A stretch of DNA of 64,000 nucleotides from an uncultured Spirochaetota bacterium (GTDB lineage: Bacteria; Spirochaetota; Spirochaetia; SZUA-6; CAVTHK01), in NCBI GenBank assembly GCA_963734495.1, contig CAVTHK010000013.1, forward strand, positions 224,001 through 288,000, in the 5' to 3' direction. The notes below the pieces were generated by a model, which saw only the letters and a list, made by a program, of their open reading frames with translations, had not been told where the DNA came from and did no database searches. Numbering within the stretch: the stretch's first letter is position 1; each line of letters opens with the position of its first letter. The translations under genes and the position numbers were made by a program. Positions 2,211 to 56,775 of this stretch are shown here, one piece after another.

Positions 2211-2308
2211 ATGGTCCTTGCCCCGCCTGACGGACATCCCCGGTGAGTACGCCGGGCCAAAGCGCCTGTACGTCCATGTACGCGCTACCCCCGGACCATC
2301 CCTGGTCC

Positions 2309-2337
2309 TTGAACACGACCGGATCGATCATTATAAT
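2309..2337 (+). promoter_or_regulatory. Sigma70 promoter of the nqr-like operon
   Basis: TTGAAC-N17-TATAAT. Confidence 0.8.
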
Positions 2338-2463
2338 CAATCGTCACTACAATCACAATTAAGTCGGGGGCTCGGTCACGTCGGCCGGGAGGCGGTCTGT
2401 CGCCGTCAGCGCCATCGCCGATGGGCAGTCCTCCAGGACGCGCCTCGGAAACGGAGCGATCGG

Positions 2464-3432
2464 GTGTACGAGAGGTTCTTCCAGAAGCAGGTGATCATGC
2501 GCCGAGTTCTGCTCGCGCTTGCGCCGATCTACCTGTTCGCTTTCTACATGTACGGGTGGCGGCTGCTGCTTCTCGGCGTCGTCGTGTTCGCGGCCGGCAT
2601 CGGCCTGGAGTACGCGTTCGAGAGCCGGCGCGGCAAGAAGATCTCCGAAGCCGTCCTCGTCACCTGCAGCCTCTTCCTGCTCTCGCTGCCGCCGCAGACA
2701 CCGCTCTGGGTGGCGCTGATCGGCATTGCGTTCGGCGTCGTGTTCGGCAAAGAGGTCTACGGGGGATTCGGGCGCAACATCTTCAACCCGGCGATCTCCG
2801 GCCGGCTCTTCATCTATATCGCGTTCCCGAGCTTCCTGCAGGCCGGCTACCTGATCCCGGGGCGCTTCGGCTTCGCCGCCACCGACGCCATCACCACGGC
2901 GACGCCGCTCGCGATGATCCGCGGCGGCGAGACCGCCGACCTCCTGAGCCTCTTTCTCGGGTTCCGCGCCGGCGCGATGGGCGAGAGCTCGATCCTGCTC
3001 ATACTCGCCGCCGCCGTCTACCTGATCGCCACCAGGACGGCCAACTGGCGGATCATCGCGACGGAGCTCGCGTCGTCCGCCGCGTTCTCGTTCGCCTTCG
3101 ACCTCCTCAAGCTCCCCGGAGCGCTTTCCGCGCTGCCCTCGCTGCTCTCCGGAAGCGTGATCATGGTGGGCGTCTTCTATGCCACGGATCCCGTCTCGGC
3201 GCCGAAGAAGCCCGGGGCGCAGTACATCTACGGCGCTCTCATCGGCGCCGTCTCGATGGTGATCCAGAACTTCTCGCTGTTCCCGGTCGGCACGAGCTTC
3301 GCGGTCATCGTGGGCAACACGTTCGCCTCCCTGCTCGACGAGCTGATCGGAGCCGCGAAGCCGGCGGCAAAGACAGCGAAGAAGGCCGCGCCCGGTCCGG
3401 CGGCGCTTCCCGCCGGGGAGGGTCGGTCATGA
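2464..3432 (+). CDS. nqrB: NqrB/RnfD family membrane subunit
   Basis: KEVYGGFGRNIFNPA, DAITTATPL (flavinylated Thr motif), GAMGESS, ATDPVSAP. GTG start with a GGAG SD. Confidence 0.85.
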   Translation: MYERFFQKQVIMRRVLLALAPIYLFAFYMYGWRLLLLGVVVFAAGIGLEYAFESRRGKKISEAVLVTCSLFLLSLPPQTPLWVALIGIAFGVVFGKEVYGGFGRNIFNPAISGRLFIYIAFPSFLQAGYLIPGRFGFAATDAITTATPLAMIRGGETADLLSLFLGFRAGAMGESSILLILAAAVYLIATRTANWRIIATELASSAAFSFAFDLLKLPGALSALPSLLSGSVIMVGVFYATDPVSAPKKPGAQYIYGALIGAVSMVIQNFSLFPVGTSFAVIVGNTFASLLDELIGAAKPAAKTAKKAAPGPAALPAGEGRS

Positions 3433-4031
3433 ACCGCGAGGGGCTCGCGTACACCGTACTGGTGACCTTTGTCGTTTCATTCGTCTTCGTGGGGCTGCTC
3501 GCATTCGCCAACGAGCTCACCAGGGACAAGGCGGAGGCCAACTCGCTTATCATGGAGCGGAGGGCGGTCCTCAACGCCCTGGGCGTCCCCTACTCGAGCG
3601 ACGCCGAGGTCCTCGACGTCTACAAGCGGGAGGTCGAGCAGGTCCATCTCGGGGGCCTCGCGATCGAGCGCGCGATCGTCGACGGCAGGGTCGTCGAGGC
3701 CGCGCGGTTCTCCGGCCCGGGCCTCTGGGGCACGATCACCGGCGTGATCGGCGTGACGCCCGACCTCTCGGAGATCGTCGGCCTGGACATCATCTCGCAG
3801 AGCGAGACGCCGGGCCTGGGCGGCAGGATCGGCGAGAGCTGGTGGAAGGCGCAGTTCCAGGGCGAGAAGATTCCCGCGGGCCGCATCGACGTGGCCGCGG
3901 GCTCCGGGCGCGGCGACAAGGACAAGGCCAACGGGAAGGTGGACGCTGTCACCGGTGCCACGATCACTTCCCGCGCGATGGAGAGCATCATCAACCGGAC
4001 CCTCGAGGCCCTCAAGGAGGCCGCACGATGA
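3429..4031 (+). CDS. nqrC: NqrC/RnfG family FMN-binding subunit
   Basis: N-terminal TM helix, GPGLWGTITG, SETPGLGG, VDAVTGATITS. Confidence 0.85.
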   Translation: MNREGLAYTVLVTFVVSFVFVGLLAFANELTRDKAEANSLIMERRAVLNALGVPYSSDAEVLDVYKREVEQVHLGGLAIERAIVDGRVVEAARFSGPGLWGTITGVIGVTPDLSEIVGLDIISQSETPGLGGRIGESWWKAQFQGEKIPAGRIDVAAGSGRGDKDKANGKVDAVTGATITSRAMESIINRTLEALKEAAR

Positions 4032-28698: not shown

Positions 28699-28800
28699 CG
28701 GTGGCCGCACATTGCAGAGCGCGCCGGCCGCGGTCAAGCGACCCGCGCGGAAACGTTGACAATGCAGCGGAGACCAGTATAGTTGGCCTCGGAGTGCCCC

Positions 28801-30219
28801 GTGAGCAAGCGTCCTAATCTGCTGTACGTCCTCGCGGATCAGCTCCGATTCCAGTCGGTCGGCTGCAACGGGGACCGCAGGGCGCAGACACCCGGCATCG
28901 ACCGCCTCGCCTCACAGGGCGTGAGCTTCGTCAACGCCGTCTCGAGCACGCCGGTCTGCGCCGCCTACCGCGCTTCGCTGTTCACCGGCAAGTACACCAC
29001 GAGCACCGGAATGGTGATCAATGAGCTGCGCATCAGCCCGCAGCATCGCTGCCTGGGCCACGTGGTCACCGAGGCCGGCTACCAGACTGCCTACATCGGC
29101 AAGTGGCACCTCTGGGCGAACCAGCTCGGCAATCACCTCGACCCGAAGAACTCGTTCACGCCCCGCGGCCCGTACAGGCTCGGCTTCGACGGCTTCTGGG
29201 CCTCCTACGGCTTCCATCACGAGTACTGGGACGCCTACTACCACACCGAGAGCCCGGAGAAGATCGTGATCCCCGGCTACGAGCCGGACGGGCAGACGGA
29301 CCTGGCGATCCGCTGGCTGCGGGAGCAGCGGGACCCGGCGTCCCCGTTCTGCATGGTCCTCTCCTACGGGACGCCGCACGACCCCTGGGGCAGCGACAAC
29401 GTGCCGGAGGAATACTGGCGGAGGTTCGCCGCGGCCGACTTCACTTATCCTCCCAACTACCTGCCGGTGAACGACGACCCTTACGCGGACGCGTGGGCCA
29501 GGTTCAAGCCGGGCGAGCGGGAGAAGCTTCCGGACTGGATGCGCGGCTACTACGCCATGGCCGCGAATCTCGACTGGAACATCGGGCGGCTGCTCGCCGC
29601 CGTGGACGAGATGGGCCTGGCGGGCGACACGATCCTCGTCTTCACCTCGGACCACGGCGAGATGTTCGGCGCGCACGGCAGGCGCGCCAAGAACATCTTC
29701 TACGAGGAGGCGGCGCGCGTGCCGTTCCTGCTGCGCTGGCCGGGCCGCGTGGCGGCGGGCAGCGTCTGCGACGCGTGCCTGGGCACGGTGGACATCCTTC
29801 CGACGCTGCTCGGGTTGGCGGGGCTGGAAGTGCCGCGCGAAGTCGAGGGCATGGACCTGAGCCTGCGCGCGCAGGGCCGGCCGGGTCCCGAGCCCGACGC
29901 GGCGTTCCTCCAGAACACCGGCGCCTGCGCGGCGTGGGAGGACGGCCACGAGTGGCGCGCGCTCCGCGACAAGCGGTACACGTACGCGAAGTACCGGGTC
30001 GACGGCCGCGAGCTTCTGTTCGACAACGCCGCCGATCCTCTGCAGATGCGTGACCTGGCAGGCGAGAGGGCGCACGCGGCGACCCTGGAGCGTTTCCGCC
30101 GGCTGCTGGCTTCGAGGATGGAGGCGCTGAACGACACGTTCCCCGCGAGCACCTGGTACAGGGACCACTGGATCGAGGACCGCGTCATCAGGCGGACGGC
30201 GACGGTGAATCCCGTCTGA
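28801..30219 (+). CDS. Cys-type sulfatase
   Basis: RPNLLYVLADQ, PVCAAYRASLFTG, GKWH, TSDHG. Upstream TTGACA-N16-TATAGT at 28756-28783. Confidence 0.93.
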   Translation: MSKRPNLLYVLADQLRFQSVGCNGDRRAQTPGIDRLASQGVSFVNAVSSTPVCAAYRASLFTGKYTTSTGMVINELRISPQHRCLGHVVTEAGYQTAYIGKWHLWANQLGNHLDPKNSFTPRGPYRLGFDGFWASYGFHHEYWDAYYHTESPEKIVIPGYEPDGQTDLAIRWLREQRDPASPFCMVLSYGTPHDPWGSDNVPEEYWRRFAAADFTYPPNYLPVNDDPYADAWARFKPGEREKLPDWMRGYYAMAANLDWNIGRLLAAVDEMGLAGDTILVFTSDHGEMFGAHGRRAKNIFYEEAARVPFLLRWPGRVAAGSVCDACLGTVDILPTLLGLAGLEVPREVEGMDLSLRAQGRPGPEPDAAFLQNTGACAAWEDGHEWRALRDKRYTYAKYRVDGRELLFDNAADPLQMRDLAGERAHAATLERFRRLLASRMEALNDTFPASTWYRDHWIEDRVIRRTATVNPV

Positions 30220-44251: not shown

Positions 44252-45529
44252 TTACTTCATGACTGACGTGATCTTTTTGGCCGCGGCCGCGAGCGAGTCC
44301 TTGACGGACTTCTCGCCGTAGAGGGCCGGCATCACTTCCTGGCTGATCGCCTCCGTGATCTCGGCGTACGCCGGGGTCACCGGGCGGGCAACCGCCACGT
44401 TGTAGTTGTTCGCGAGCGCCTTGAGGAACTCGGGGTTCTTGGCCACGTACTCGGGGTCGGACATCGCCTTCTTGTTGGGCGTGGTCTGGCCGAACTGCAG
44501 AACCTGGGTCCTCATCATGTCGTCCTCGGAGAGCGTCCTGATGAACTCGACCGCCGTCGTCTGGTTCTTGGAGAAGGCGTTGACGCCGTTGTTCCATCCC
44601 CCGATCACGCTCACCTGGTCATGGCCAGGGAAGCTGGGCGGGGTCCCGACACCGACCTTCCCCTTGACTTTCGAGCTGTCCTGCTGGAACCGGGCCCAGG
44701 AGTAGTCCCAGTTCATCGTGAACACTGCGCGCCCCTCGTTGAACACGATGCGGGCGTTGTCGGTCGTCAGGCTCAACACGTCCTTGGGCGCGATCTTCTG
44801 CCTGGCAATCGCGTCCGCCATGAGCTGCAGGGCCTCCGCGTTCTCGGGGCTGTCGATCGTGACCTGGCTCAGATCCTTGCTCATGACGCCGCCGCCGTTG
44901 CTCGCGATAAAGAGCAGGAACTGGCAGAAGATCTGGTTTCCGCGCTCCCACGAAGCGACGAAGCCGAAACGGTCGGGAGCTCTGGAGCTTGAGCGCCTGC
45001 TGACCGAGATCGTTCCACGTCGTCGGCACCGCCATGCCCGCGCTCGAGAGGAGGTCCTTGCGGTAGTAGAAGTCCAGCGTGTCCGCGGTCAGCGGGATCC
45101 CGTAGAGCTTGCCGTTCCAGAGGCACGCGTTGAAGAAGGCGGTAGAGTTCCGGTCGCGGACCTCATTCACGTTGAAGAACTTGTCGAGGGCGAAGGATCC
45201 ATCCGGACGAGGCGAACTCGCCGGTGTCCACCGTGTTCATCAGCACGACGTCGATGGAGCCATCCTTGGCCGCGAACATCGTGACGTACTTCGCCCTGCG
45301 GTCGACCGAAGTGTTGGGCGCCGGGACGAACTCCACCTGGACGTTCGGGTACTTCTTGTTGAAGTAAGCCCCGTAGGCCTTGTCGAGGTTCTCACTGGCT
45401 GCTCGTATTGATCATGGCGGTGATCTTGCCCTGCACCTGGCCGGCCTTGCTCGTCTCGCCCTGCCCGGTCGCGTAGACCATCGCCGCCATGAGCAGCGCC
45501 GCGAGAATGAAACACGCTCGTCTGAGCAT
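44252..45529 (-). CDS. Sugar ABC substrate-binding protein (several frameshifts)
   Basis: Signal peptide MLRRACFILAALL, GKLYGIP, YYRKDLL, PTTWND, ARPVTPAY, spread over several frames. Confidence 0.85.
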
Positions 45530-45724: not shown

Positions 45725-47907
45725 ATGGCACGATCGACGGACGCACGCGTCAGGGTCGCCGGGCAGCATGCGCGGGTGACCGTCACGGCTGCGAGCGATC
45801 GCACCGCGAGGATCACGGTGGCGGCCGCCTCCGACGCGGGCCTTCCGCCGGACGAGCCGGTGCTGGCGCCGCGCGCGTGGCCGGAGCCGGCAGCGAGCTT
45901 CGACGCGCTGCCGGCGGAGGTGCGCCTTGCTGCGGGCGCGCTCACGGTGAGCGTCTCGCGCGGCGGGAACGGCATCGAGATCGCGCTCACCGACGGCTCG
46001 CGCCAGCTGCGCCTCGAGATCAGCGCCGACGCGCACGAGCTGCTGTTCGACGCCGGCCGCGGGCCGCTGTACGGGCTCGGCGCCGGGGGGACGCAGCAGA
46101 TGGACCGGCGGGGCGGCGTGTTCGAGCCGCTCAACGGCCAGATCGCGGGCGAGCAGGAGGAGTTCGGCGCGAGGGTGTACATCCCCCTGCTGCTGAGCGC
46201 CGAGGGCTGGAGCCTCTTTGTCCACCGCCCCTTCCACGCCACTGTCGACCTGCGCGGCGAGCGCGGGCGCCTCGCGGCGGGCGGCCTTCTTCCCCTTGAC
46301 CTCTTCGTAACGGTGGCCGGCGACCCTGCGGCGCTGCTTTCCGAGCACGCCGCCCTGGTCGGCCCCACGCCGCTTCCTCCGAAGTGGGCCCTCGGCTACC
46401 AGCAGTCGCACCGCACCCTCACCTGGCGCGGCGAGGAGCAGGTGCTGAAGACCGCGCGCACCTTTCGGGAGAAGCATCTCCCCTGCGACACGCTCATCTA
46501 CCTCGGAACCGGCTTCTGCCCCGCGGGCTGGAACAGGGGCCACGGCTCCTTCGAGTTCAACGCCGTCTTCGACGACCCCGAGGCGACGCTCGCCGAGCTC
46601 CACCGCATGGGCTTCAAGGTGATCCTGCACGTGCTCGCGCATCCCAAAGGGCTGCACGGCAGCGTGCAGCGAGGCGCCTGGCGCGCGGCCGCCCGCGGCG
46701 GCGGACCCGGCCGATGCGCGCGCCTACTGGGACAAGCACCGCTTCCTGCTCGAGCCGCGCCTCGGCGTCGACGGCTTCTGGCCCGACGAAGGCGACGACG
46801 ACGACATCCCCGCGCGCCTGGCGCGCCATCGGCTCTACTGGGAAGGACCCGTCGCGGAGCGGCCTGACGTCCGGCCGTTCTCGTTCCACCGCAACGGCTA
46901 CGCGGGCATGCAGCGCTGGGGCGGCAACATCTGGTCAGGCGACACGTTCGCGTGGTGGCGGACGCTCAAGTCCCACGTGCCCATCGCGCTGAACGCGAGC
47001 CTGAGCGCGACGCTCTACTGGCAGTCGGACACCGGCGGGTTCTTCCCCACAAAGGAGCTCACAGGCGAGCTGTACGCGCGCTGGTTCCAGTTCTCCGCGT
47101 TCTGCCCGATCTTCCGCAGCCACGGTCGCACGTGGCACCTGCGGCGGCCGTGGGGCTGGAACACGGGCGATCTCGGGCCCGACGAGGCGGGGACCGGCTA
47201 TCGCGGGCTCCCGGGTCTCGGCAATCCCGACGCGTCCGAGCTGCACAATGCCGAAGTGGAGCCGATCTGCCGCAAGTACCTCGAGCTGCGCTACCGCCTG
47301 CTCCCCTACATCTACAGCCTCGCGTGGGAGGCGTGGGCCCGGGGCATGCCGCTGATGCGGCCCCTGTGGCTGCACTTTCCCGACGACGAGGCGGCGGTCC
47401 GCTGCTCCGACCAGTACATGTGGGGCCCTTCGATCCTCGTCGCCCCCGTCCTGGAAAAGGGCGCGGCGTCGCGCAGGGTGTATCTCCCGCGCGGGCCTCT
47501 GGTACGACTACTGGACGCGCGAGGCGATCGAAGGCGGCCGCACCGTGGAGCGTCCGGTGGATCTCGCGACGATGCCGCTCTACGTCCGCGCGGGGGCCGT
47601 GCTCCCGCTCGACCCTGTGCGCGAGCACGTCGGCCAACCGGTCGACGCGCCAACGACCCTCGAAGTGTGGGAAGGGGCCGACGGCTCGTTCCTGCTGTAT
47701 GACGACGACGGGGTCAGCCTGGAGTATAGACAAGGGAAGGGCGCCCTCACCGCCCTCACGTGGAGCGAGGCCGGCAGGACCCTCACGCTCGAGAGACGCG
47801 GCGGAGCGAGGGCGCCGGCGCCTGTGCGATACGCGGTACGCAGCGCGCTCCGCGACGGACCGCGCGAGCTCGTCTTTGACGGCCGTCACGCGTCCGTCGT
47901 ACTGTGA
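45725..47907 (+). CDS. Glycoside hydrolase family 31 (frameshifts near 46700 and 47495)
   Basis: PKWALGYQQS, FWPDEGD, WSGD, SDTGGF, LRYRLLPYIYS, LYDDDG. Confidence 0.9.
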
Positions 47908-47947: not shown

Positions 47948-48739
47948 ATGCGCATCAAGCAGTCGTTCTGTCTCCCGATGTACCGCCAGGAGGGGCTCGA
48001 TCTGCCCGCTCTCTTCCGCGAGGTGCGGAAGATCGGCTATCCCGCGACCGAGGTCTGGGACCGCTTCGCGCTGGAAGGCCCGGGCTGGGAGGAGACGTTC
48101 GAAGCCGCGCGCAGCGCCGGCCTCGCGATCGCGAGCATGAGCGGCCATCGCTCGCTGCCCGACGGCCTGAACAAGACGGAGAACCACGACCGCATCGAGG
48201 CTGAGCTGCGCGAGTCGATCGACGTCGCGGTCAAATGGCGCGTCCCGGGCCTGATCTGCTTTTCCGGCAACCGCAACCCGGGACAGAGCGACCTCGAGGG
48301 GATGATGGTGTGCGCCCGGGGCCTGCGGCGGATTGTCCGCTACGCCGAGGAAAAGAAAGTCAACCTGAACGTCGAGCTGCTCAACTCGCGCGTGAACCAC
48401 CCGGGCTACCAGTGCGACCACACCGAGTGGGGCGTCGCCCTGTGCGAGATGGTCGGCAGCCCGCGCGCGAAGCTGCTCTTCGACATCTACCACATGCAGA
48501 TCATGGAAGGCGACGTCATCCGCTCGATCCGCTCGCACATCGGCCGCATCGGCCACTTCCACACGGCCGGCAACCCCGACCGGCGCGACCTGGACGACGA
48601 GCAGGAGCTGAACTACCGCGGCATCTCGCGCGCCATCGCGGCAACGGGATACGACGGGTTCGTCGGGCACGAGTTCAAGCCCAGGGGCGACGTCCTCGAG
48701 GCGCTGCGGACGGCCTTCGCGATCTGCGACCAGGGCTGA
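47948..48739 (+). CDS. Hydroxypyruvate isomerase family TIM-barrel protein
   Basis: ELLNSRVNHPGY, LLFDIYHMQIMEG, HFHTAGNP, GHEF. Confidence 0.88.
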   Translation: MRIKQSFCLPMYRQEGLDLPALFREVRKIGYPATEVWDRFALEGPGWEETFEAARSAGLAIASMSGHRSLPDGLNKTENHDRIEAELRESIDVAVKWRVPGLICFSGNRNPGQSDLEGMMVCARGLRRIVRYAEEKKVNLNVELLNSRVNHPGYQCDHTEWGVALCEMVGSPRAKLLFDIYHMQIMEGDVIRSIRSHIGRIGHFHTAGNPDRRDLDDEQELNYRGISRAIAATGYDGFVGHEFKPRGDVLEALRTAFAICDQG

Positions 48740-48751
48740 GGCGAGCGGCCG

Positions 48752-50207
48752 TCAGCGGCGGCCGCGGGCCATCTCCCGCGCCAGCTCGCCGAGTGTCCTG
48801 ACCGCCTGCTCCGTCACCGGGTTCCACGCCGCGGCGCTGAGGCGGAAGTAGCCGTCGTATCCTCCCGACGCCGAGAAGAGCGGCCCCGGCGCGATCGAGA
48901 TCCCGCGCTCGAGCGCCCTGCGGTAGAGCTCGAGCGAGTCCAGCCCCTCGGGCAGCTCGATCCAGAGCAGGTACCCTCCGGCAGGCCTGGTCACGCGCGT
49001 GCCCGCGGGGAACAGGCGGCCGATCGCCTCGCCCATCGCCGCGACGCTCGCCGCGTAACCGCGGCGGATGCCGCGGAGGTGCCGGTCGTAGCCGCCGTTC
49101 TCGAGGAACTCCGCCATCGCGATCTGCGTCGGCGAGGCGCTGGCGACGTTGCTGATGAACTTGAGCCGCGCGATCTCCCCTTGCAGCTTCCCCGCGGCGA
49201 TCCAGCCGACCCGGTAGCCCGGCGCCACGGTCTTGGAGAACGAGGAGCAGAGGATCACGTTGTCGTCGGCCGCGCGCGCCACCGGCGGCCGCGGCTCCTC
49301 GAACGAGAGGTCCCCGTTGATGTCGTCCTCGATCAGCGCGACGCCGTGGCTCGCGAGAAGCCTCACCGAGCTCCGCCTTGCGCTCGACGGGCATGACGCT
49401 TCCCAGCGGGTTGGTAAAGTTCGTGATCGCCACGCACGCCCGCACCGCATTGTGCTCGAGGGCGTAGCGCAGGACCTCGAGGCTCATCCCTTCGCTCGGC
49501 GTCGCGGGGATCTCGAGGACGCGCAGCCCGAACGACTCCATGGTCTGGAAAAAGCTGAAGAACGTCGGCGACTCCACCGCGACCGTGTCGCCCGGCCGGC
49601 AGAGCGCCCGCAGCGCGAGACCCACGGCCTCGAGGCAGCCCGATGTGATGACGATCTCTTCGGGCTTCAGGGCGCAGCCGGCGAGCAGGCCGCGGCGCGC
49701 GATCTGCTCGCGCAGCCGCCGGTCGCCGGCCGGGGGCAGGTAGCCCACGCTCCGCGCGGGATGGCGGCGCGCCTCGACCGCGATCATGCGCGTGAGCCGC
49801 TCCGCCGGGAGCAGGGCCGGGTTGGGGAGCCCGAGGCCGAGCGGCAGCAGCGTCGGGTCCGAGAAATGCTGCATGATCCGCTGCAGCAGCGCGCCGTTGG
49901 TGATCTCCGCGGGCGCGACCGCGGCCTCCGCGACCTCGGCGGCGTGCGGCAGCTCCGGCAGCGGTCCCGTCACGTAGTAGCCCGACTGCGGCCGCGCGGA
50001 CACGACGCGCCTCGTCTCCAGCAGCTCGTACGCCTCTTTGACCGTGTTGACGCTCACCCGAAGCTGCCGGCTCAGAGTGCGGATCGACGGGATGCGGTCC
50101 CCGGGTCTCAGGGCGCCCTCGCCGATCATCGCGTTGATCCGCGAGGCGACCCGCTCGTAGAGCGGGGCCTGCCTCGCCTCGAGCTGTCCTGTTCCTGGTT
50201 CGGTCAT
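48752..50207 (-). CDS. MocR/GntR family PLP-dependent regulator (frameshift near 49365)
   Basis: GDRIPSIR...VSVNTV...RPQSGYYV, SSFSKTVAPGYRVGW. Confidence 0.92.
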
Positions 50208-50221
50208 GGCCATAACGTTAA

Positions 50222-50330
50222 TATGACTCAAAAAGTCATAAAAGACTCAGTCGGGCCGCCCGGCAATGGTCACAGTTGCCCCCCGCGCCGACTGTGTCGG
50301 GCTCACATCTGATTGACTGAATCTGTTCCG
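50222..50330. promoter_or_regulatory. Candidate MocR operator region
   Basis: TATGACT-N5-AGTCATA (50222-50240), CACAGT-N14-ACTGTG (50271-50296), repeated ATCTG. Confidence 0.5.
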
Positions 50331-50740: not shown

Positions 50741-51742
50741 CTACAGCGAGTCGACGTCGACGACCTGGCCGGTGTCGAGCGAGCGGATCGCGGCAAGAAT
50801 CACCCGCAGGCCCCGGAGCGCGTCCTCGCCCGAGCCGTCGATCTCCTCGGGCTTCGCGCCGGCCGCCACCTGGCGCACAAAGGCGCGCAGGCGCGCGCGG
50901 AAGGTGTCGTCGAACCCCGCGTAGCCGCCAAACACCGGGTTGGTGAAAACGCGCTTCTCCAGGTTGCCCGCGGGGTACAGCGTCGCCTCGCGCCACATGT
51001 CGTCGACCACGAGGCGGCCCTTCGTGCCCGCGATCTCGCAGCGCTCCATCGGGTGGCCGCGCTCGATGTCGTAGCTGCTCGTGAGGTGCCCCACCGCGCC
51101 GTTGGCGAACTGCATGTTGAACGACGCCGTCGACCATATGTTGCGGCCCGGTGCCGTCATCGCAAAGCAGTGCACCCGCCTCACCTCCCCGCAGTAGTAC
51201 CGCATCATGTCCACGCTGTGCGGGTTCAGCGCCTTGATGTGGTAGGTGCGCGACTCGAGCGGCTGGAACTTCCCGATCCAGAGGGCCATGTTGCAGAAGA
51301 GGAGGTCGCCGAGGAGGCCTTCATTCTGCCATTTCTTCGCCTGGAGTGCGGCGGGCGTGAACCGGTGGTTGAAGTCGCACCCGAGGCAGAGGCGCTTCTC
51401 CCTGGCGCTCGCCACCATGGCCTGTGCAGGCTCGAGCTCGTTGGAGATCGGCTTCTCGACGAGCACGTGGCAGCCCGCCTCGAGGGCCTGCAGCGCCGGT
51501 TTCGCGTGGTCGCTCGCGTACTCGTAGCCGCCCGTTGCGACGCTCACGATCGCCGGCTTCGCGGCGCGCAGCATCTCGCGCGCATCCGTGTACCAGGCAA
51601 CGTCCAGCCTGCGCCCGGCCTTCTCGGCCCGGTCGGGGAGGATGTCGCACACGGCGGCGAGCTCCACCATCTCGTCGCGCTTGTAGAGATCGGCGTGCAG
51701 GTTCCCGATGGGCCCCAGGCCCACGACGCAAACCTTCACCAT
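50741..51742 (-). CDS. Gfo/Idh/MocA oxidoreductase
   Basis: VVGLGPIG, HVLVEKP, NHRFTP, HSVD. Confidence 0.92.
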   Translation of the reverse strand: MVKVCVVGLGPIGNLHADLYKRDEMVELAAVCDILPDRAEKAGRRLDVAWYTDAREMLRAAKPAIVSVATGGYEYASDHAKPALQALEAGCHVLVEKPISNELEPAQAMVASAREKRLCLGCDFNHRFTPAALQAKKWQNEGLLGDLLFCNMALWIGKFQPLESRTYHIKALNPHSVDMMRYYCGEVRRVHCFAMTAPGRNIWSTASFNMQFANGAVGHLTSSYDIERGHPMERCEIAGTKGRLVVDDMWREATLYPAGNLEKRVFTNPVFGGYAGFDDTFRARLRAFVRQVAAGAKPEEIDGSGEDALRGLRVILAAIRSLDTGQVVDVDSL

Positions 51743-51772
51743 GAGAGCCCTCCCCCCGACGCGGCGCCCCTG

Positions 51773-52610
51773 CTACTTTCGTCCCGCGCCGCGCCGCTTG
51801 TCGGCCTCGAGGACGCGGTCGCGGACCGCGATCAAGTTGTCGGCGTTCACGTACTCGAGAACAAAGGGTAACCCTTCGCAGTGCTGGTGGTACAGGTCCA
51901 GGAACAGCGGCCAGTCGATGTCGCCGTCGCCGACGACGCGCCCCTTGGCGTCGTTGACCTTGCGGTCCTTGCCGTGGAAGTAGCCGATGTGGGGCGCCAG
52001 GTAGCGGAACATGTCCTCTTCGGAGCTGTTGGCGATGAGGTTCGCGGGGTCGAGCAGGACCTTGATCCGGTCGGAGCCGACCTGCGCGATAAAGTCGCGC
52101 GTGCGCTTCGCGCTCGGGACGGGGTCGAGCACGCACGACTCGAGGCACACGTGCAGCCCGTGCCGCGCCGCGGCCACGGCCAGGCGCTGGAAGCTCAGCA
52201 CGAGACGCGCAAAGTCGCTCTCGTAGGTCTCCAGACGCACGCCTCTCGCTCCCGGGCACGAAGCCGGTCTCGGTCGAGACATAGGGGACCCCGTTGGCCT
52301 CGGCGATCTCCATGTGCCGCTCGAAATAGTCGATGTTCTCGTCGAGCTCGCGCTCGTCGGGCTCCATGAGGTTGGTAAAGACTCCGATCGCCGTGACCTC
52401 GACGCCGCGGCCGCGGTAGGTCTCGACGATCTCGCGCGCCCGCTCGTCGGTCAGCCCCGAGATGTCGGAGCGGCCGTTGTAGACCCAGTACTTCGAATCG
52501 GTCTGCGAGAAGCAGAGCTCGGTCCAGCGGAACCCGTTGCTCGCGAGGAGGTCAGCGGTCTCGCGATTCGAGAGCTGCGGAAAGCTCCTGGTCACGACTC
52601 CGACGTCCAC
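51773..52610 (-). CDS. Sugar phosphate isomerase/epimerase TIM barrel (frameshift near 52250)
   Basis: STETGF, VCLES, LLDPAN, FHGKD, GDGDIDW, VLEY. Confidence 0.87.
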
Positions 52611-52688
52611 GGCATGCCTCCTGCGGAACGGTACCACGGCGCCGGGTCCGCCGCCTCCATGAAAGCGCCAGCCGCAAGCATGATCGGG

Positions 52689-54205
52689 TCAGGGCGCGCC
52701 GCTGCGGTGCGTAGCGCGTCCCCTCGCCGGCGGTCAGCGCGCGGTAGGCGACGGCCGTCCGCCCGTAGTCGCCGCCGCGGTCGAGCGCGTAGCCGCGGCC
52801 GACCGCGGTCGCGACGGCGAGCCCCGCGAGCTCGTCCGCGTGCCGATCCAGCAGGTCCGCTCCGGTCTCGCCGTGCCCGTCGAGGATCAGGTGAAGCACG
52901 ATCCTTCCGGCGCCCGCGCTGCGGGCCGCCTCGGCGATGGCGAGGGTCTCCCCGATCGTGCCGTGGGAGCTGGTCTCGGACAGCATCCCGATCAGGTGCA
53001 CGACCGAGCCGCGGCGCGCGGCCCCGCGCGCGAGCGCGGCGAGGCGCGAATGGCCCGCAAACCCGTCGGCAAACGCGCGGCGCAGCCGCAGCTCGTCCTG
53101 CTCGACGACCCTCCCCGCGCCGATCGTGAGGTGGCCGGCCTCCGAGTTCCCGCCGCGGCCCGCGGGCAGGCCGACCGCCACGCCCGACGCCTCCAGGCGC
53201 ACGAGAGGGAGCCGCGCGCTCAGGTCCGCGAGGTGGACCGGCGCCGCGGCCGCGATCGGGTTCGTCTTCGGGTCATCGGGACCGAGGCCCCATCCATCCA
53301 GGATCACCAGGGCCAGCTTCGAAGCGCGGGCGCGGGGGAAGACGAGAGCCGTTCCCGTCATCTCGGCGGGCGCGGGGATCCCGAAAAAGCGCAGCGCGGT
53401 GGGCGCGACGTCCGCGAGGCTTCCCTCGCGCGCGCGGAAGTCCGCGGCGCTCACGCGCCCGGTCCGACACCAGGAACGGGACGAGGCTCGTCGTGTGGGC
53501 GGTTCCCGGGGTGCCGTCGGGGTTCACCCCCACTTCGAGAAGCCCGTGGTCCGCCGTCACCAGGACGGCCGCCTCGGCGGCCGCGGCGGCGCGGAGGATC
53601 CCGCCGAGCGCCTCGTCCACGGCGCGCACGGCGGCGACCTTGGCTTCGAACGCCGGCAGATGACCGACAGTGTCGCCCGCGGCAAAGTTCACGAGCACGA
53701 AGTCGTGGCCGGAGAGGCCCTCGGCGGCGGCGGCGCCTGCTTCCGCGGTGCCCGCGACCACTCTCGTTTCGTGCAGCGGCAGAGGCTCGTTGCGGCGGCC
53801 GTTGAAGAAGAAGGTGACGAGCGCGCGCTTTTCGGCTCTCGCTCACGGCGAGCTGCCGCAGCCCGGCGCGGCCGAGGGTTTCGCCCAGCGTGTTGGCGGG
53901 GCGGAGAGGCGGGATGAGCGGCTCGACCCGTATGCCCGGATCGTATTCGACGAGAGGCACGAACTCCAGGCCCGGCAGGGGCATCCGCTCGAAAGTGCGG
54001 GAAACTCGCGGGACGTGAAGGCTTCGGTGAGCTGCGCCTCGCGGTCCCCCCTGCGGCAGCAGAAGATCGCCACGTCGCCGGGGCCGATGCGGCCGGCCGG
54101 GCCTTCCGCCCCCGCGGCCACGAGGGGCCGCATCCACGTGTCGGTCTCTCCCCGCGCGTACCGCGCGCGGAGCTCTGCGGCCAGTCCCGTGCTCACCGGG
54201 CTCAT
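52689..54205 (-). CDS. gpmI: Circularly permuted 2,3-BPG-independent phosphoglycerate mutase-like protein (about 4 frameshifts; stop uncertain, 52689 or 52552)
   Basis: All iPGM motifs are present, but the canonical C-terminal half precedes the N-terminal half. Confidence 0.85.
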
Positions 54206-54320
54206 TGTCCCGGGAGGCATCGCCGCGTGTCAAACCCGGGGCGGCCGGGCTGGGGCGGGCGCTTGCACCGCAGCCGCAGGACCGGCACAATGCGGCGCGC
54301 GGGAGGACGGCGAGGCAGGC

Positions 54321-55222
54321 ATGACGGTCGCGACAAGGGGCTCCTCGGCGGCGTCGGTGCGGGTCCTCCCCGCGTCGCGGGTGTTCCACGACGAGGGGTT
54401 CCCGCTGCACGCCATGGTCATCGACCAGTTCGACCTCGACCGGCACAGGCACGACTTTACCGAGATCGTCGTGGTGCTCGACGGCGTGGGCGACCACCTC
54501 TTCGACGAGCGCGTCTACCCGATCTGCGCCGGCGACGTCTTCGCGGTCGACAAGAGCCACGCGCACGGCTACCGCAACACGCAGGCCCTGCGGATCGCCA
54601 ACGTGCTGTTTGACGAGCCCTTCCTCACCGCCCGCGCGCCGTGGGTCGAGCGTCTCGCCGGATACCAGGCGCTGGTGCACCTGGAGCCGACGCTGCGCAA
54701 GCAGCAGGCCTTCGGCGGCAAGCTGCGCCTCGGTCCGCAGGCCATGGCGCGCGCCGGCGAGCTGGTCCGCAGGCTGCTGGAAGAGCTGCGCGGCGCCGCG
54801 AGGGCTACCGCGCGATGGCCTTCGCCCTGCTCACCGAGCTGCTGGTGGACCTCGCGCGCTGGTACGCGGGCAGCGACGTCCAGCAGACCCGCGACGTGGC
54901 CGACGTCGGCCGCGTGATCAGCTACCTCGAGAACCACTACCAGGAGCCCGTCGAGCTCGCCGACCTGGAAAAGCTCGTCGGCCGGTCCACCCGGACGCTC
55001 CTGCGGCGCTTCAACCAGGCGACGGGCCTGACCCCGATCCAGTACCTGCTGCGCGTGCGCGTCGCCCGCTCCTGCGGCCTGCTCGCCGCAAGCGCCCTGT
55101 CCATCACGGACCTCGCGGGGCGCGTCGGCTTCGAGGACAGCAACTACTTCGCGCGGCAGTTCCGCCAGGTGATGGGCATGAGCCCGTCGGAGTACAGGCG
55201 GAACACGAGGGCGCCGCAGTGA
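54321..55222 (+). CDS. AraC family regulator, RhaS/RhaR-like (frameshift near 54795)
   Basis: HRHDFTEIVVV cupin; VGFEDSNYFARQF. Confidence 0.92.
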
Positions 55223-55543
55223 ACGCTTCGCCTGCGGGCGCGGGCCGCGAGGCGCGGACCATGGGCGCCATGATCCGGCTCTACTGCGCCGCGCGCCACG
55301 GGACGAAGCGGCCCTGCGAGGACTGCGCTCGCCTCGCGGCCTACGCGCTGGACAGGCTGGACCGCTGCCGCTTCGGGTCGCGCAAGCCGGTCTGCGCGCG
55401 CGTGCCCGACTCACTGCTATCGGCCCCGGGAGCGCGAGGCGATCCGCGAGGTGATGCGCTGCGCCGGGCCGAGGATGCTGCTGCGCCACCCGCTCCTCGC
55501 GGCGCTGCACCTGCTGCACCGGGCCAGGGGCGTGCGCGCATGA
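55219..55543 (+). CDS. YgbA / nitrous-oxide-stimulated promoter family protein (frameshift near 55400)
   Basis: MIRLYCAARH...CEDC..LAAYA..RLDRC...KPVC, then HCY...VMRCAGPRMLLRHP. Confidence 0.85.
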
Positions 55544-56775
55544 GGCGGCGGCGCGAGCGCGGCGCGCGGCCCGCGCAGCGCGGGGCCGGCGACTCCGCGC
55601 TGCTGGAGGCCGCGGCCGGGGCCATCGCCGCGGTGCTCCGCGACGGCCGCCGCGCCGACGCGGAGCTGCACCGCCTGATGCGGGAGAACGCGCGCTGGTC
55701 CGCCGAAGCCAGGGCCGCTGTCGCCTCCGCGGTCCACGACGTGCTGCGCGACTGGCGGCGGCTCGCCTGGGCCGCGCACGCGCGCCGCACCCCCCCGACG
55801 GAAGCGGACGTGCGGGCCGTCGTGGAGGCGTGGGCCGCGTCCGCCGGCCGGCGCCGGGACGCGCCGGACGCCGCGGCGCGCCGCGGCCCCGCCCTCCCCT
55901 TCGCGGTCGAGCACTCGCTGCCCGACTGGCTCGACCGTGCGGGCGCCTCAGAGCTCGGCGGCGAGCGCTGGCGCGCCTTCGCCTCGTGGGCCGAGCGCGA
56001 GCCTCCCCTCTACGTCCGCGCGAACACGCTCAAGATCGGCCCCGAGGCGCTCGCCCGCCGCCTGCGCGCGGAGTGCGGCGCGGACGCGCGCCGCGTCAGC
56101 TGGTCGGTGGACGCCCTCGAGGTGCGCTCCCGCGCCGATCTCCTCGCCACCGAGGCGCACGGGGCGGGGCTTTTCGAGGTGCAGGATGCCGCGTCGCAGC
56201 TGGTCTCGCGGGCTCTGGACGCGCGGCCGGGGATGCGGGTCGTCGACGGCTGCGCGGGCGCCGGCGGCAAGACGCTGCATCTCGCCGCGCTGATGCGCAA
56301 CGAGGGCCGCGTGCTTGCCCTCGACCCGAGCGAGGCGAAGCTCGCGCGCCTCCGCGCGCGGGCCCGCAGGGCCGGCGCCGCGATCGTCGAGACCCGCGCC
56401 GTCGAGTCCACAAAGGTCATCAAGCGGCGCAGCGGGACCGCGGACCGCCTCCTCCTCGACGTGCCGTGCTCGGGCCTGGGCGTGATCCGCCGCAACCCCG
56501 ACATCAGGTGGCGCCTGCGGCCCGAGGACCTCGAGCGCGTGCGGGCGCTGCAGCGCGAGATCCTTTCGACGTATCCGCGCCTCGTGCGCGAGGGCGGTCG
56601 CCTCGTGTATGCGACGTGCAGCGTGCTACCTTCGGAGGGGGAGGAGCAGGTGCGGTGGTTCCTGGAGCGGGAGCCCGGGTCGTGGCGTCTCCTCGAGGAG
56701 AAGCGATGGGGGCCGCCCGGTCAGGACAGCGACGCTTTCTACATAGCGGTGCTGGAGAGAACCCCGCCCGGGTAG
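55540..56775 (+). CDS. RsmB/NOP family RNA m5C methyltransferase
   Basis: FEVQDAASQ, DGCAGAGGKT, DVPCSGLG, YATCS. Confidence 0.92.
   Translation: MRRRRERGARPAQRGAGDSALLEAAAGAIAAVLRDGRRADAELHRLMRENARWSAEARAAVASAVHDVLRDWRRLAWAAHARRTPPTEADVRAVVEAWAASAGRRRDAPDAAARRGPALPFAVEHSLPDWLDRAGASELGGERWRAFASWAEREPPLYVRANTLKIGPEALARRLRAECGADARRVSWSVDALEVRSRADLLATEAHGAGLFEVQDAASQLVSRALDARPGMRVVDGCAGAGGKTLHLAALMRNEGRVLALDPSEAKLARLRARARRAGAAIVETRAVESTKVIKRRSGTADRLLLDVPCSGLGVIRRNPDIRWRLRPEDLERVRALQREILSTYPRLVREGGRLVYATCSVLPSEGEEQVRWFLEREPGSWRLLEEKRWGPPGQDSDAFYIAVLERTPPG

Follow-up and report, generated by a model that had tools for sequence, protein, structure and literature searches.

A circularly permuted gene of the phosphoglycerate mutase iPGM family in an uncultured Spirochaetota bacterium, and the apparently undescribed family to which it belongs

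What is encoded by a gene that opens in the middle of a cofactor-independent phosphoglycerate mutase (iPGM), runs to the usual C-terminus of that enzyme and then passes, through a short linker, into the usual N-terminus? The gene in question lies on the minus strand of a 64,000-nucleotide stretch, hereafter the window, from an uncultured Spirochaetota bacterium (GenBank assembly GCA_963734495.1, contig CAVTHK010000013.1, positions 224,001–288,000). In textbooks, iPGM figures as a two-domain enzyme of glycolysis, and in nematodes and trypanosomatids it is a drug target. A sequence-only reading of the window had understood the gene as a natural permutant whose new ends fall within the transferase domain, and our analysis leads to the same view, on the grounds of collinear homologues in many phyla, the grouping of the gene in trees and a confident model of its closest homologue that matches only iPGM structures. 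With a probability of roughly 80%, we consider the gene to specify a real, natural and probably functional permuted enzyme of the iPGM family. The permuted family is large, apparently undescribed, and extends over many bacterial phyla. The substrate and pathway of the window enzyme are much less certain than this core claim.

Three-frame translation, Pfam matches and structure–sequence alignment agree on the order along the minus strand: canonical iPGM residues ~221–511, the 7-residue linker FPRARAS, and residues ~5–213. Every motif quoted in the sequence-only reading was recovered in that order, from LAAELRARYARGETDTWMRP through CRRGDRE, TLGETL, VTFFFNG, GDTVGH, TADHG, AHTT and LADVAPT...EMTGTALV to FPRARAS, KLALVILDGWG, GNSEAGH, HLIGMLS, DGHG, GRGYALDR and AYRALTAGEGTRY, and the C-to-N junction with its linker lies within a single uninterrupted frame (~53460 to 52700). 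The open reading frame (ORF) at 53843–54220 matches positions 137–200 of the iPGM_N profile and that at 53273–53761 positions 143–225 of Metalloenzyme, followed by the ORF at 52552–53454, which matches Metalloenzyme 2–62 and then iPGM_N 10–132 (E-values of 3e-17 and 4.8e-9 for iPGM_N and of 1.3e-10 and 7.6e-19 for Metalloenzyme, all above the gathering scores). A tblastn search with the canonical iPGM P0091 returned swapped high-scoring segment pairs (HSPs), as had been anticipated, with residues 10–214 at 53316–52720, 221–476 at 54181–53462 and 485–517 at 53430–53332. The HSPs of the closest homologue, P0002, succeed one another along the minus strand; this intact protein of 509 residues is 78% identical to the window over 253 residues spanning the junction. 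Against chain 1EJJ of Geobacillus stearothermophilus, P0002 residues 22–294 correspond to 221–510 and residues 301–503 to 5–213, placing the cut between canonical residues 213 and 221. Nothing substantial is missing from the permutant, since only ~7 canonical residues (214–220) fall at the new termini. Given the Pfam E-values and the identity to an intact collinear protein, the swapped domain order is far beyond chance.

A protein search with the junction-bearing ORF of the window, its matches classed by motif order, found the same arrangement in other organisms. Among the 120 matches listed, 55 are permuted, 60 canonical and 5 unclassed (fragments and the window's own ORF). The permuted members have a common start (…Y..G..DYW…), followed by ADHG, AHTT, LADVAPT, EMTG, a short linker, LDGWG, GNSE.GH and GRG.ALDR. 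P0002 and the window copy additionally have in common the DGHG motif, an H-to-L change and a loop deletion. A scan of one genome per species yielded at least 80 loci, the closest among those listed at 43% identity; the 80 listed comprise 39 permuted, 36 canonical and 5 unclassed loci, and in L022 and L025, both counted as unclassed, the motif order is likewise permuted. The 39 permuted loci belong to at least eight named phyla: Chloroflexota (14), Bacillota (13, among them the cultured Butyricicoccus pullicaecorum ET57, L033), Thermodesulfobacteriota (3), Aminicenantota (2), and Myxococcota, Omnitrophota, Acidobacteriota and Spirochaetota (1 each), with three loci carrying no phylum name. A search of 1.84 billion cluster representatives gave, among its best 150 matches, 19 that align with the permuted profile as a single full-length stretch; the others align in two or three stretches. 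An ESM Atlas search returned only clusters named iPGM.

The collinear matches expected by the sequence-only reading thus exist, and the locus is not the remnant of a tandem duplication without collinear homologues. In public databases, permuted members appear as 'iPGM', 'alkaline phosphatase family protein' or 'sulfatase-like hydrolase/transferase' (for example P0002, P0004, P0012, P0020 and L033). In the full-text literature searched, apart from subscription journals, InterPro and CDD notes and supplements, no paper on a permuted iPGM was found, as judged by title and abstract, and none that characterises the family, which the sequence-only reading had named as a ground against its view. One predicted giant protein, P0247 (5027 residues), contains a complete permuted iPGM unit at residues 3851–4375, either as a gene-calling artefact or as a real fusion.

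The AlphaFold check proposed earlier was carried out on P0002 and came out in favour of an iPGM fold. Using an alignment of 45 family sequences, AlphaFold2 gave a model with a mean predicted local distance difference test score (pLDDT) of 93 and a predicted template-modelling score of 0.90, with pLDDT values of 95–98 across the linker. A Foldseek search of this model against the PDB returned only iPGM entries at E ≤ 0.001 (~266–333 aligned columns, template-modelling scores of 0.35–0.45), with root-mean-square deviations of 2.8–3.0 Å for 1EJJ and 1O98. Alignment over about half of the P0002 chain is what an order-dependent aligner is expected to give with a permutant. A sequence search of the PDB gave 11 matches at E ≤ 1e-10, every one of them in two stretches, so that no permuted order occurs among these 11. 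iPGM is described as two domains linked by two hinge peptides, acting through a phosphoserine intermediate (PMC5382265). The canonical chain is laid out as the N-part of the phosphatase domain, a hinge, the transferase domain, a hinge and the C-part of the phosphatase domain. The permuted chain starts in a transferase-domain loop (canonical ~215), continues through hinge 2, the phosphatase C-part and the 7-residue linker, and then passes through the phosphatase N-part, hinge 1 and the first part of the transferase domain. Permutation in this way makes the phosphatase domain one continuous stretch and builds the transferase domain from the two chain ends, with the fold and both hinges kept.

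For phylogenetic analysis, permuted sequences were re-ordered to the canonical arrangement, and sequences of 470–570 residues (proteins) or 470–600 residues (locus ORFs) that contained both motifs were kept. A FastTree tree of 290 rows contains a branch (support 99) that sets 95 of the 97 permuted sequences apart, with no canonical sequence on their side. IQ-TREE analysis of 70 rows placed the window as sister to P0002 (support 100), with P0004 and P0006 next (99), within a permuted group of 26 rows (99). Because the permuted clade spans at least eight phyla, the permutation appears to be an ancient event that took place a single time or on very few occasions. It may have arisen when tandem copies of the gene fused in frame and were trimmed at both ends. 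Such 'permutation by duplication' explains natural circular permutants among swaposin/saposin, some DNA methyltransferases and transaldolases. Two genomes of the candidate phyla radiation carry head-to-tail canonical gpmI pairs 0–2 nt apart (L023, 8010–9554 and 9555–11072; L051, 7161–8753 and 8756–10342), and these pairs are the state that the route requires; the upstream L023 copy has GSSEVGH where others have GNSE.GH. A fused double-length intermediate was not seen among the long proteins examined.

The window copy is interrupted by four frame breaks, all located in short C, G or T runs (Table 1). As it stands, the gene measures 1517 nt, with about 5 bases in surplus, implying ~503 codons plus a stop; a second in-frame ATG lies at 54220. 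Three of the frameshifts suspected in the sequence-only reading (~53997, ~53835 and ~53455) coincide with breaks 1 to 3; the one at ~53770 does not stand, as a single-frame HSP spans 53854–53465, and the break near 52705 comes in addition, being required to arrive at the TGA with which the sequence-only reading ends the gene. Removal of the surplus base at 53834 gives SESEKRALVTFFF, which fits the family consensus and brings the counterpart of K336 back in frame. If break 4 is left uncorrected, the frame continues to 52552 and overlaps the next gene. Reading through the pieces encounters 0 stops in 500 residues; piece 3 is without ~13–16 residues that other family members have after FFFNG. Five other genes in the window are also split, encoding a solute-binding protein, a GH31 glycosidase, a GntR/aminotransferase regulator, a TIM-barrel protein and an AraC regulator. 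Of nine breaks measured across the window, seven are net +1 and two net +2, and in the five other genes four of five are net +1. Since this bias towards surplus bases is shared by many window genes, assembly error is more likely than decay, and the four breaks are most likely assembly errors.

With respect to the active site, the seven metal and nucleophile residues named in the sequence-only reading (D12, S62, D403, H407, D444, H445 and H462, G. stearothermophilus numbering) all have counterparts in the window, which also keeps those of H123, R185, R191, R261, R264 and K336. This rests on the window translation and on the mapping of 1EJJ to P0002 (D12=D308, S62=S359, H123=H419, R185=R475, R191=R481, R261=R58, R264=R61, K336=K131, D403=D183, H407=H187, D444/H445=D224/H225 and H462=H242); all 13 mapped residues are invariant in 45 permuted proteins and present in the window. 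Nine residues contact 2-phosphoglycerate (2PG) or 3-phosphoglycerate (3PG), namely S62, H123, R153, D154, R185, R191, R261, R264 and K336, according to PMC3886921, on whose list the roles of individual contact residues rest here. Seven of the nine are kept in the window and P0002, in which R153 is replaced by H and D154 by G or a gap; the earlier observation that DGRD reads DGHG in the window is borne out by translation.

The two changed positions differ in how widely they vary. R153 is R in 190 of 193 canonical sequences and in 89 of 95 members of the main permuted clade, and H in the window and P0002. At the D154 column, all but one of the 193 canonical sequences carry D (192), against S (61), G (32), N (1) or D (1) among the 95 permuted ones, so that the pocket motif of the permuted clade is mostly DGRS or a GRRG variant instead of the canonical DGRD. 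A permuted subtype (P0054, P0055, P0078, P0081, P0107, P0112, P0115 and similar) has MLGRRGERPESG at the site of the canonical LDGRDTPP, with both the D of 'DG' and D154 lost. The window keeps 34 of the 36 columns that are at least 97% conserved in both the permuted and the canonical sets. On the TIGR01307 model, for which P0002 stood in for the frame-broken window protein, permuted proteins match in two swapped stretches; members other than P0002 score 365–481 bits and the canonical P0091 743 bits. We found no NCBIfam model specific for the permuted form. The earlier suggestion of a possibly altered substrate specificity gains support from R153H and the loss of D154 in the window and P0002, from the absence of D154 in 94 of 95 main-clade members and from the non-glycolytic neighbourhoods described below.

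In the window, the permuted gene appears to head a three-gene operon with a TIM-barrel gene and a Gfo/Idh/MocA oxidoreductase gene, beside a divergent AraC regulator gene that lies 115 nt from the iPGM start (Table 1). The TIM-barrel gene probably starts at GTG 52610, 78 nt past the TGA of the permuted gene and with AGGAGG 6 nt upstream. Further nearby genes encode parts of ABC sugar transport, the GH31 glycosidase and another TIM-barrel protein. By tblastn and gene annotation, the 64-kb window contains no glycolytic gene and no second iPGM. Two candidates for the latter were rejected: a weak tblastn match of P0004 at 1–459, which has no Pfam match, and a match at 29581–29859, which is part of a sulfatase, a distant member of the metalloenzyme superfamily. 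This sulfatase gene (28783–30219, plus strand) and the RnfD/NqrB-like and FMN_bind genes (2218–4031, plus strand) are unrelated to the permutant. The oxidoreductase is conserved to an unusual degree, being 86–95% identical to several metagenome proteins and 68% identical to one of Mahella australiensis, and its best NCBIfam matches are far below their cut-offs (UDP-GlcNAc 3-dehydrogenase, 115 bits; inositol 2-dehydrogenase, 112 bits); the search for hints among its homologues yielded many unnamed proteins at 68–95% identity and no specific function or taxon. A local step in composition is also apparent, with G+C contents of 0.749 for the permuted gene, 0.662 for the TIM-barrel gene, 0.682 for the oxidoreductase gene and 0.708 for the AraC gene. 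The plus-strand ORF at 54610–56775, with a YgbA_NO domain at residues 213–264 and an RsmB/F methyltransferase at residues 438–697, probably represents two genes merged by a further frame error or a spurious upstream extension.

Table 1. Window coordinates of the permuted gene, its parts and frame breaks, and of adjacent and other split genes.
Feature	Positions	Strand	Basis or remarks
Whole permuted iPGM-like gene as it stands	52689–54205	minus	ATG 54205; TGA 52691–52689
Piece 1, MSPVSTGLAAELRARYARGETDTWMRP...CRRGDREAQLTEAFTSREFP: second part of transferase domain, canonical ~221–290; CRRGDRE = counterparts of R261, R264	53999–54205	minus	Translation; Pfam iPGM_N 137–200
Piece 2, ERMPLPGLEF...TLGETLGRAGLRQLAVSES: transferase domain end and hinge, ERMPLPGLEF...TLGETL...AVSES	53835–53990	minus	Translation; homology to P0002
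Piece 3, opening EKRALVTFFFNG: C-terminal part of phosphatase domain; EK (K336), GDTVGH (D403, H407), TADHG (D444, H445), AHTT (H462)	53462–53833	minus	Translation; Pfam; P0002
Last piece, LADVAPT...EMTGTALV-FPRARAS-KLALVILDGWG...GNSEAGH...HLIGMLSETSSHG...LDGHG...GRGYALDR...AYRALTAGEGTRYA	53460 to ~52708	minus	
Canonical C-terminus, ending ...LADVAPTALRFFGIPAPAEMTGTALV	53341–53460	minus	Translation; tblastn
Linker FPRARAS, in-frame join of old C-terminus to old N-terminus	53320–53340	minus	Translation
Canonical N-terminal half: phosphatase N-part (LDGWG = D12, GNSEAGH = S62), hinge, first part of transferase domain (SSHG = H123, DGHG replacing DGRD, GRGYALDR = R185 and R191), end at AYRALTAGEGTRY	52708–53319	minus	Translation; Pfam; tblastn
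Frame break 1, net +2 (or -1) nt, CCC/TTT runs of ...GAGTTTCCCGCACTTTCGAG...	53991–54001	minus	P0002 comparison; DNA
Frame break 2, one surplus C (AGCC GAA AAG)	53834	minus	P0002 comparison; DNA
Frame break 3, one surplus base in GACCGGG	53461	minus	P0002 comparison; DNA
Frame break 4, net +1, needed for TGA at 52691–52689	52700–52710 (~52705)	minus	P0002 tail = 12 residues after GEG
Xylose-isomerase-like TIM-barrel protein (AP_endonuc_2), next downstream, split by +1 break	51773–52610	minus	ORFs; Pfam
Gfo/Idh/MocA oxidoreductase, intact, 333 residues, third gene of apparent operon	50741–51742	minus	ORFs; Pfam
AraC-family regulator (cupin/AraC_binding + HTH_18), divergent, split by frame break	54321–55222	plus	ORFs; Pfam
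Split gene, solute-binding protein	44252–45170		
Split gene, GH31	45725–47702		
Split gene, GntR/aminotransferase regulator	48675–50231		
Split gene, TIM-barrel protein	51321–52637		
Split gene, AraC	53670–55222		

Neighbourhoods were also counted for the 39 permuted and 36 canonical loci listed in the genome scan. HAD-family hydrolase genes occur at 13 of the permuted loci versus one canonical locus, and a PRK/uridine-kinase-like gene at four versus none. In ten loci of Chloroflexota and Bacillota (L001, L002, L003, L004, L005, L006, L012, L013, L027 and L033; match at about 8001), the permuted gene is directly preceded on its own strand by one to four HAD genes, often together with a PRK-like kinase, xylose-isomerase-like TIM barrels and LacI or RpiR regulators, and with an ApgM-type mutase in four loci. 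This combination of HAD, kinase and TIM-barrel genes is a conserved cluster. No glycolytic gene is found among the annotated neighbours in the permuted loci listed. Gfo/Idh/MocA proteins near other permuted genes were considered as a conserved partner and rejected, being non-orthologous (23–29% identity) and not adjacent.

Several observations weigh against regarding the gene as a natural, functional permutant. No permuted member has a known activity, and the operon partners in the window are not conserved beside other permuted genes (AP_endonuc_2 at 3 of 39 permuted and 0 of 36 canonical loci); an ApgM-type mutase (NF003160, 571 bits against a cut-off of 468) stands directly downstream of the permuted gene in the four loci mentioned. 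A single origin of the permutation is also less than certain. Both trees built without constraint place the permuted proteins P0136 and P0153 with the canonical sequences: canonical enzymes are their nearest relatives (51–57% identity for most matches), they keep the DGRD pocket, and none of the 119 other listed matches of P0136 covers more than 59% in one local alignment (42–57% identity). The two may stem from a permutation of their own that used the same cut point, or may have branched off early within the one clade; the approximately unbiased test did not reject a single permuted clade (p = 0.746), the constrained tree having the higher likelihood. The window and P0002 have lost positions at least 90% conserved in the other 288 sequences (R153, the H339-equivalent to L, an E to H, an S to G and two prolines, the latter with the deleted loop), which could reflect relaxed constraint, and P0002 scores 313.3 bits on TIGR01307, below the cut-off of 330.65. 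Finally, four break sites (~5 surplus bases) fall within 1.5 kb, compared with 0–1 per ~1-kb gene in the neighbours and possibly more in GH31, and the breaks may be real rather than errors. The gene would then be a decaying pseudogene of a permuted iPGM whose protein is no longer made, a view to which the loss of near-invariant residues and the loop would also lend itself, as would a G+C content (0.749 versus 0.66–0.71 in neighbours) that might mark a foreign, dispensable gene. We regard this as improbable: the residue losses are common to the intact P0002 and therefore older than any decay, none of the 13 catalytic or retained contact residues is altered, no in-frame stop lies within the homologous pieces, and at least five other window genes show like breaks with the same +1 bias, whereas decay is not expected to yield surplus bases only. 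By far the least credible account takes the permuted order for an error of assembly, or for what remains of a recent tandem duplication of gpmI in this genome alone. A gene ending exactly where it started resembles a trimmed tandem duplicate, the assembly is error-rich and tandem canonical pairs exist in L023 and L051; nevertheless, the same order, cut point and in-frame linker recur in the 55 independent protein clusters and 39 genome loci of other organisms, the window groups with permuted sequences and not with canonical genes, and the locus holds no second partial copy and no repeat. The collinear homologues refute a local artefact and make a misjoin at the junction very unlikely.

The role of the enzyme calls for separate weighing. 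It could, though permuted, simply serve the organism as its housekeeping phosphoglycerate mutase of glycolysis, with substrate and role unchanged, as suggested by the retention of seven of nine substrate contacts and of all metal and nucleophile residues, by the scores of most permuted members, which pass the TIGR01307 equivalog cut-off, by the ~40% identity that still links canonical and permuted proteins and by the lack of another iPGM within the window. This seems to us unlikely, though far from negligible, because R153 and D154 are both changed in the window, an Asp at position 154 is near-universal in canonical sequences (192/193) and survives in 1 of 95 of the main permuted clade, P0002 falls below the cut-off, and the gene lies beside an AraC-type regulator and TIM-barrel isomerase-like and oxidoreductase genes rather than gap, pgk, tpi or eno. 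Elsewhere, permuted genes stand behind tandem HAD genes and sometimes beside an ApgM-type mutase, the latter arguing against a simple housekeeping role in those four loci. A tentative alternative is that the permuted clade is not a phosphoglycerate mutase at all and that it gained, along with the permutation, a new activity as a phosphomutase or phosphotransferase, which would fit the clade-wide replacement of Asp154, the clusters with HAD, PRK-like, TIM-barrel and ApgM genes, and the further changes of the window and P0002 proteins in an AraC-controlled sugar-catabolic operon.

Taking the gene as a natural and probably functional iPGM-family permutant, we would expect the chemistry of iPGM: a two-metal site and a serine nucleophile would take the phosphoryl group from the substrate and return it after the substrate re-orients in the transferase domain, with hinge closure as in iPGM. 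In the divergent sub-branch made up of the window copy and P0002, the substrate pocket is altered (R153H, loss of D154, H339-equivalent to L, one loop deleted). From this pocket, the operon partners and the AraC neighbour, we propose that the window copy is a working phosphomutase of a sugar or sugar-acid catabolic route, its predicted substrate being 3PG/2PG, bound in an altered pocket, or a related phospho-acid.

A natural family with an inverted nested-domain topology offers a ready-made experiment on chain connectivity, hinge motion and folding, to which the window copy adds a more diverged branch. For annotation, a permutant is at present named according to whether its two half-scores chance to reach a cut-off; to judge from the loss of Asp154 and the HAD/kinase/TIM-barrel neighbourhoods, an enzyme of other function may be counted as glycolytic in metabolic reconstructions of Chloroflexota, Oscillospirales and others. 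Members are already present in public databases under iPGM-like or generic names, and the family is of interest to specialists in enzyme evolution and annotation.

Compared with canonical iPGM (GpmI/GpmM; TIGR01307; PF01676 with nested PF06415; 1EJJ, 1O98 and 5KGN), the window gene has both Pfam domains, a similar length (~505 residues), 31–43% identity to P0091 over both halves, the seven metal and nucleophile residues, seven of nine substrate contacts and, through P0002, a predicted fold that matches only iPGM. It differs in its order, permuted at canonical ~214–220 with a 7-residue linker between the old termini, in profile matches that come as two swapped stretches, in DGHG for DGRD and in its non-glycolytic gene context. 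Within the permuted clade, the window copy is collinear end to end and has the same cut point, and it is set apart from most members by DGHG, from many by the absence of directly upstream HAD genes, and by its frame breaks. ApgM (PF10143 and PF01676) and the phosphopentomutase DeoB share the metalloenzyme superfamily core, giving weak NCBIfam matches to the phosphatase C-part only (E 1e-5 to 1e-15); unlike the permuted proteins, they have another cap domain and no iPGM_N, the scores of permuted proteins are far below the ApgM and DeoB cut-offs, and true ApgM is a separate protein in the four loci. Compared by concept only, the family resembles other cases of permutation by duplication, with a complete fold bearing new termini, a short linker between the old termini and tandem pairs in the parent family (L023 and L051).

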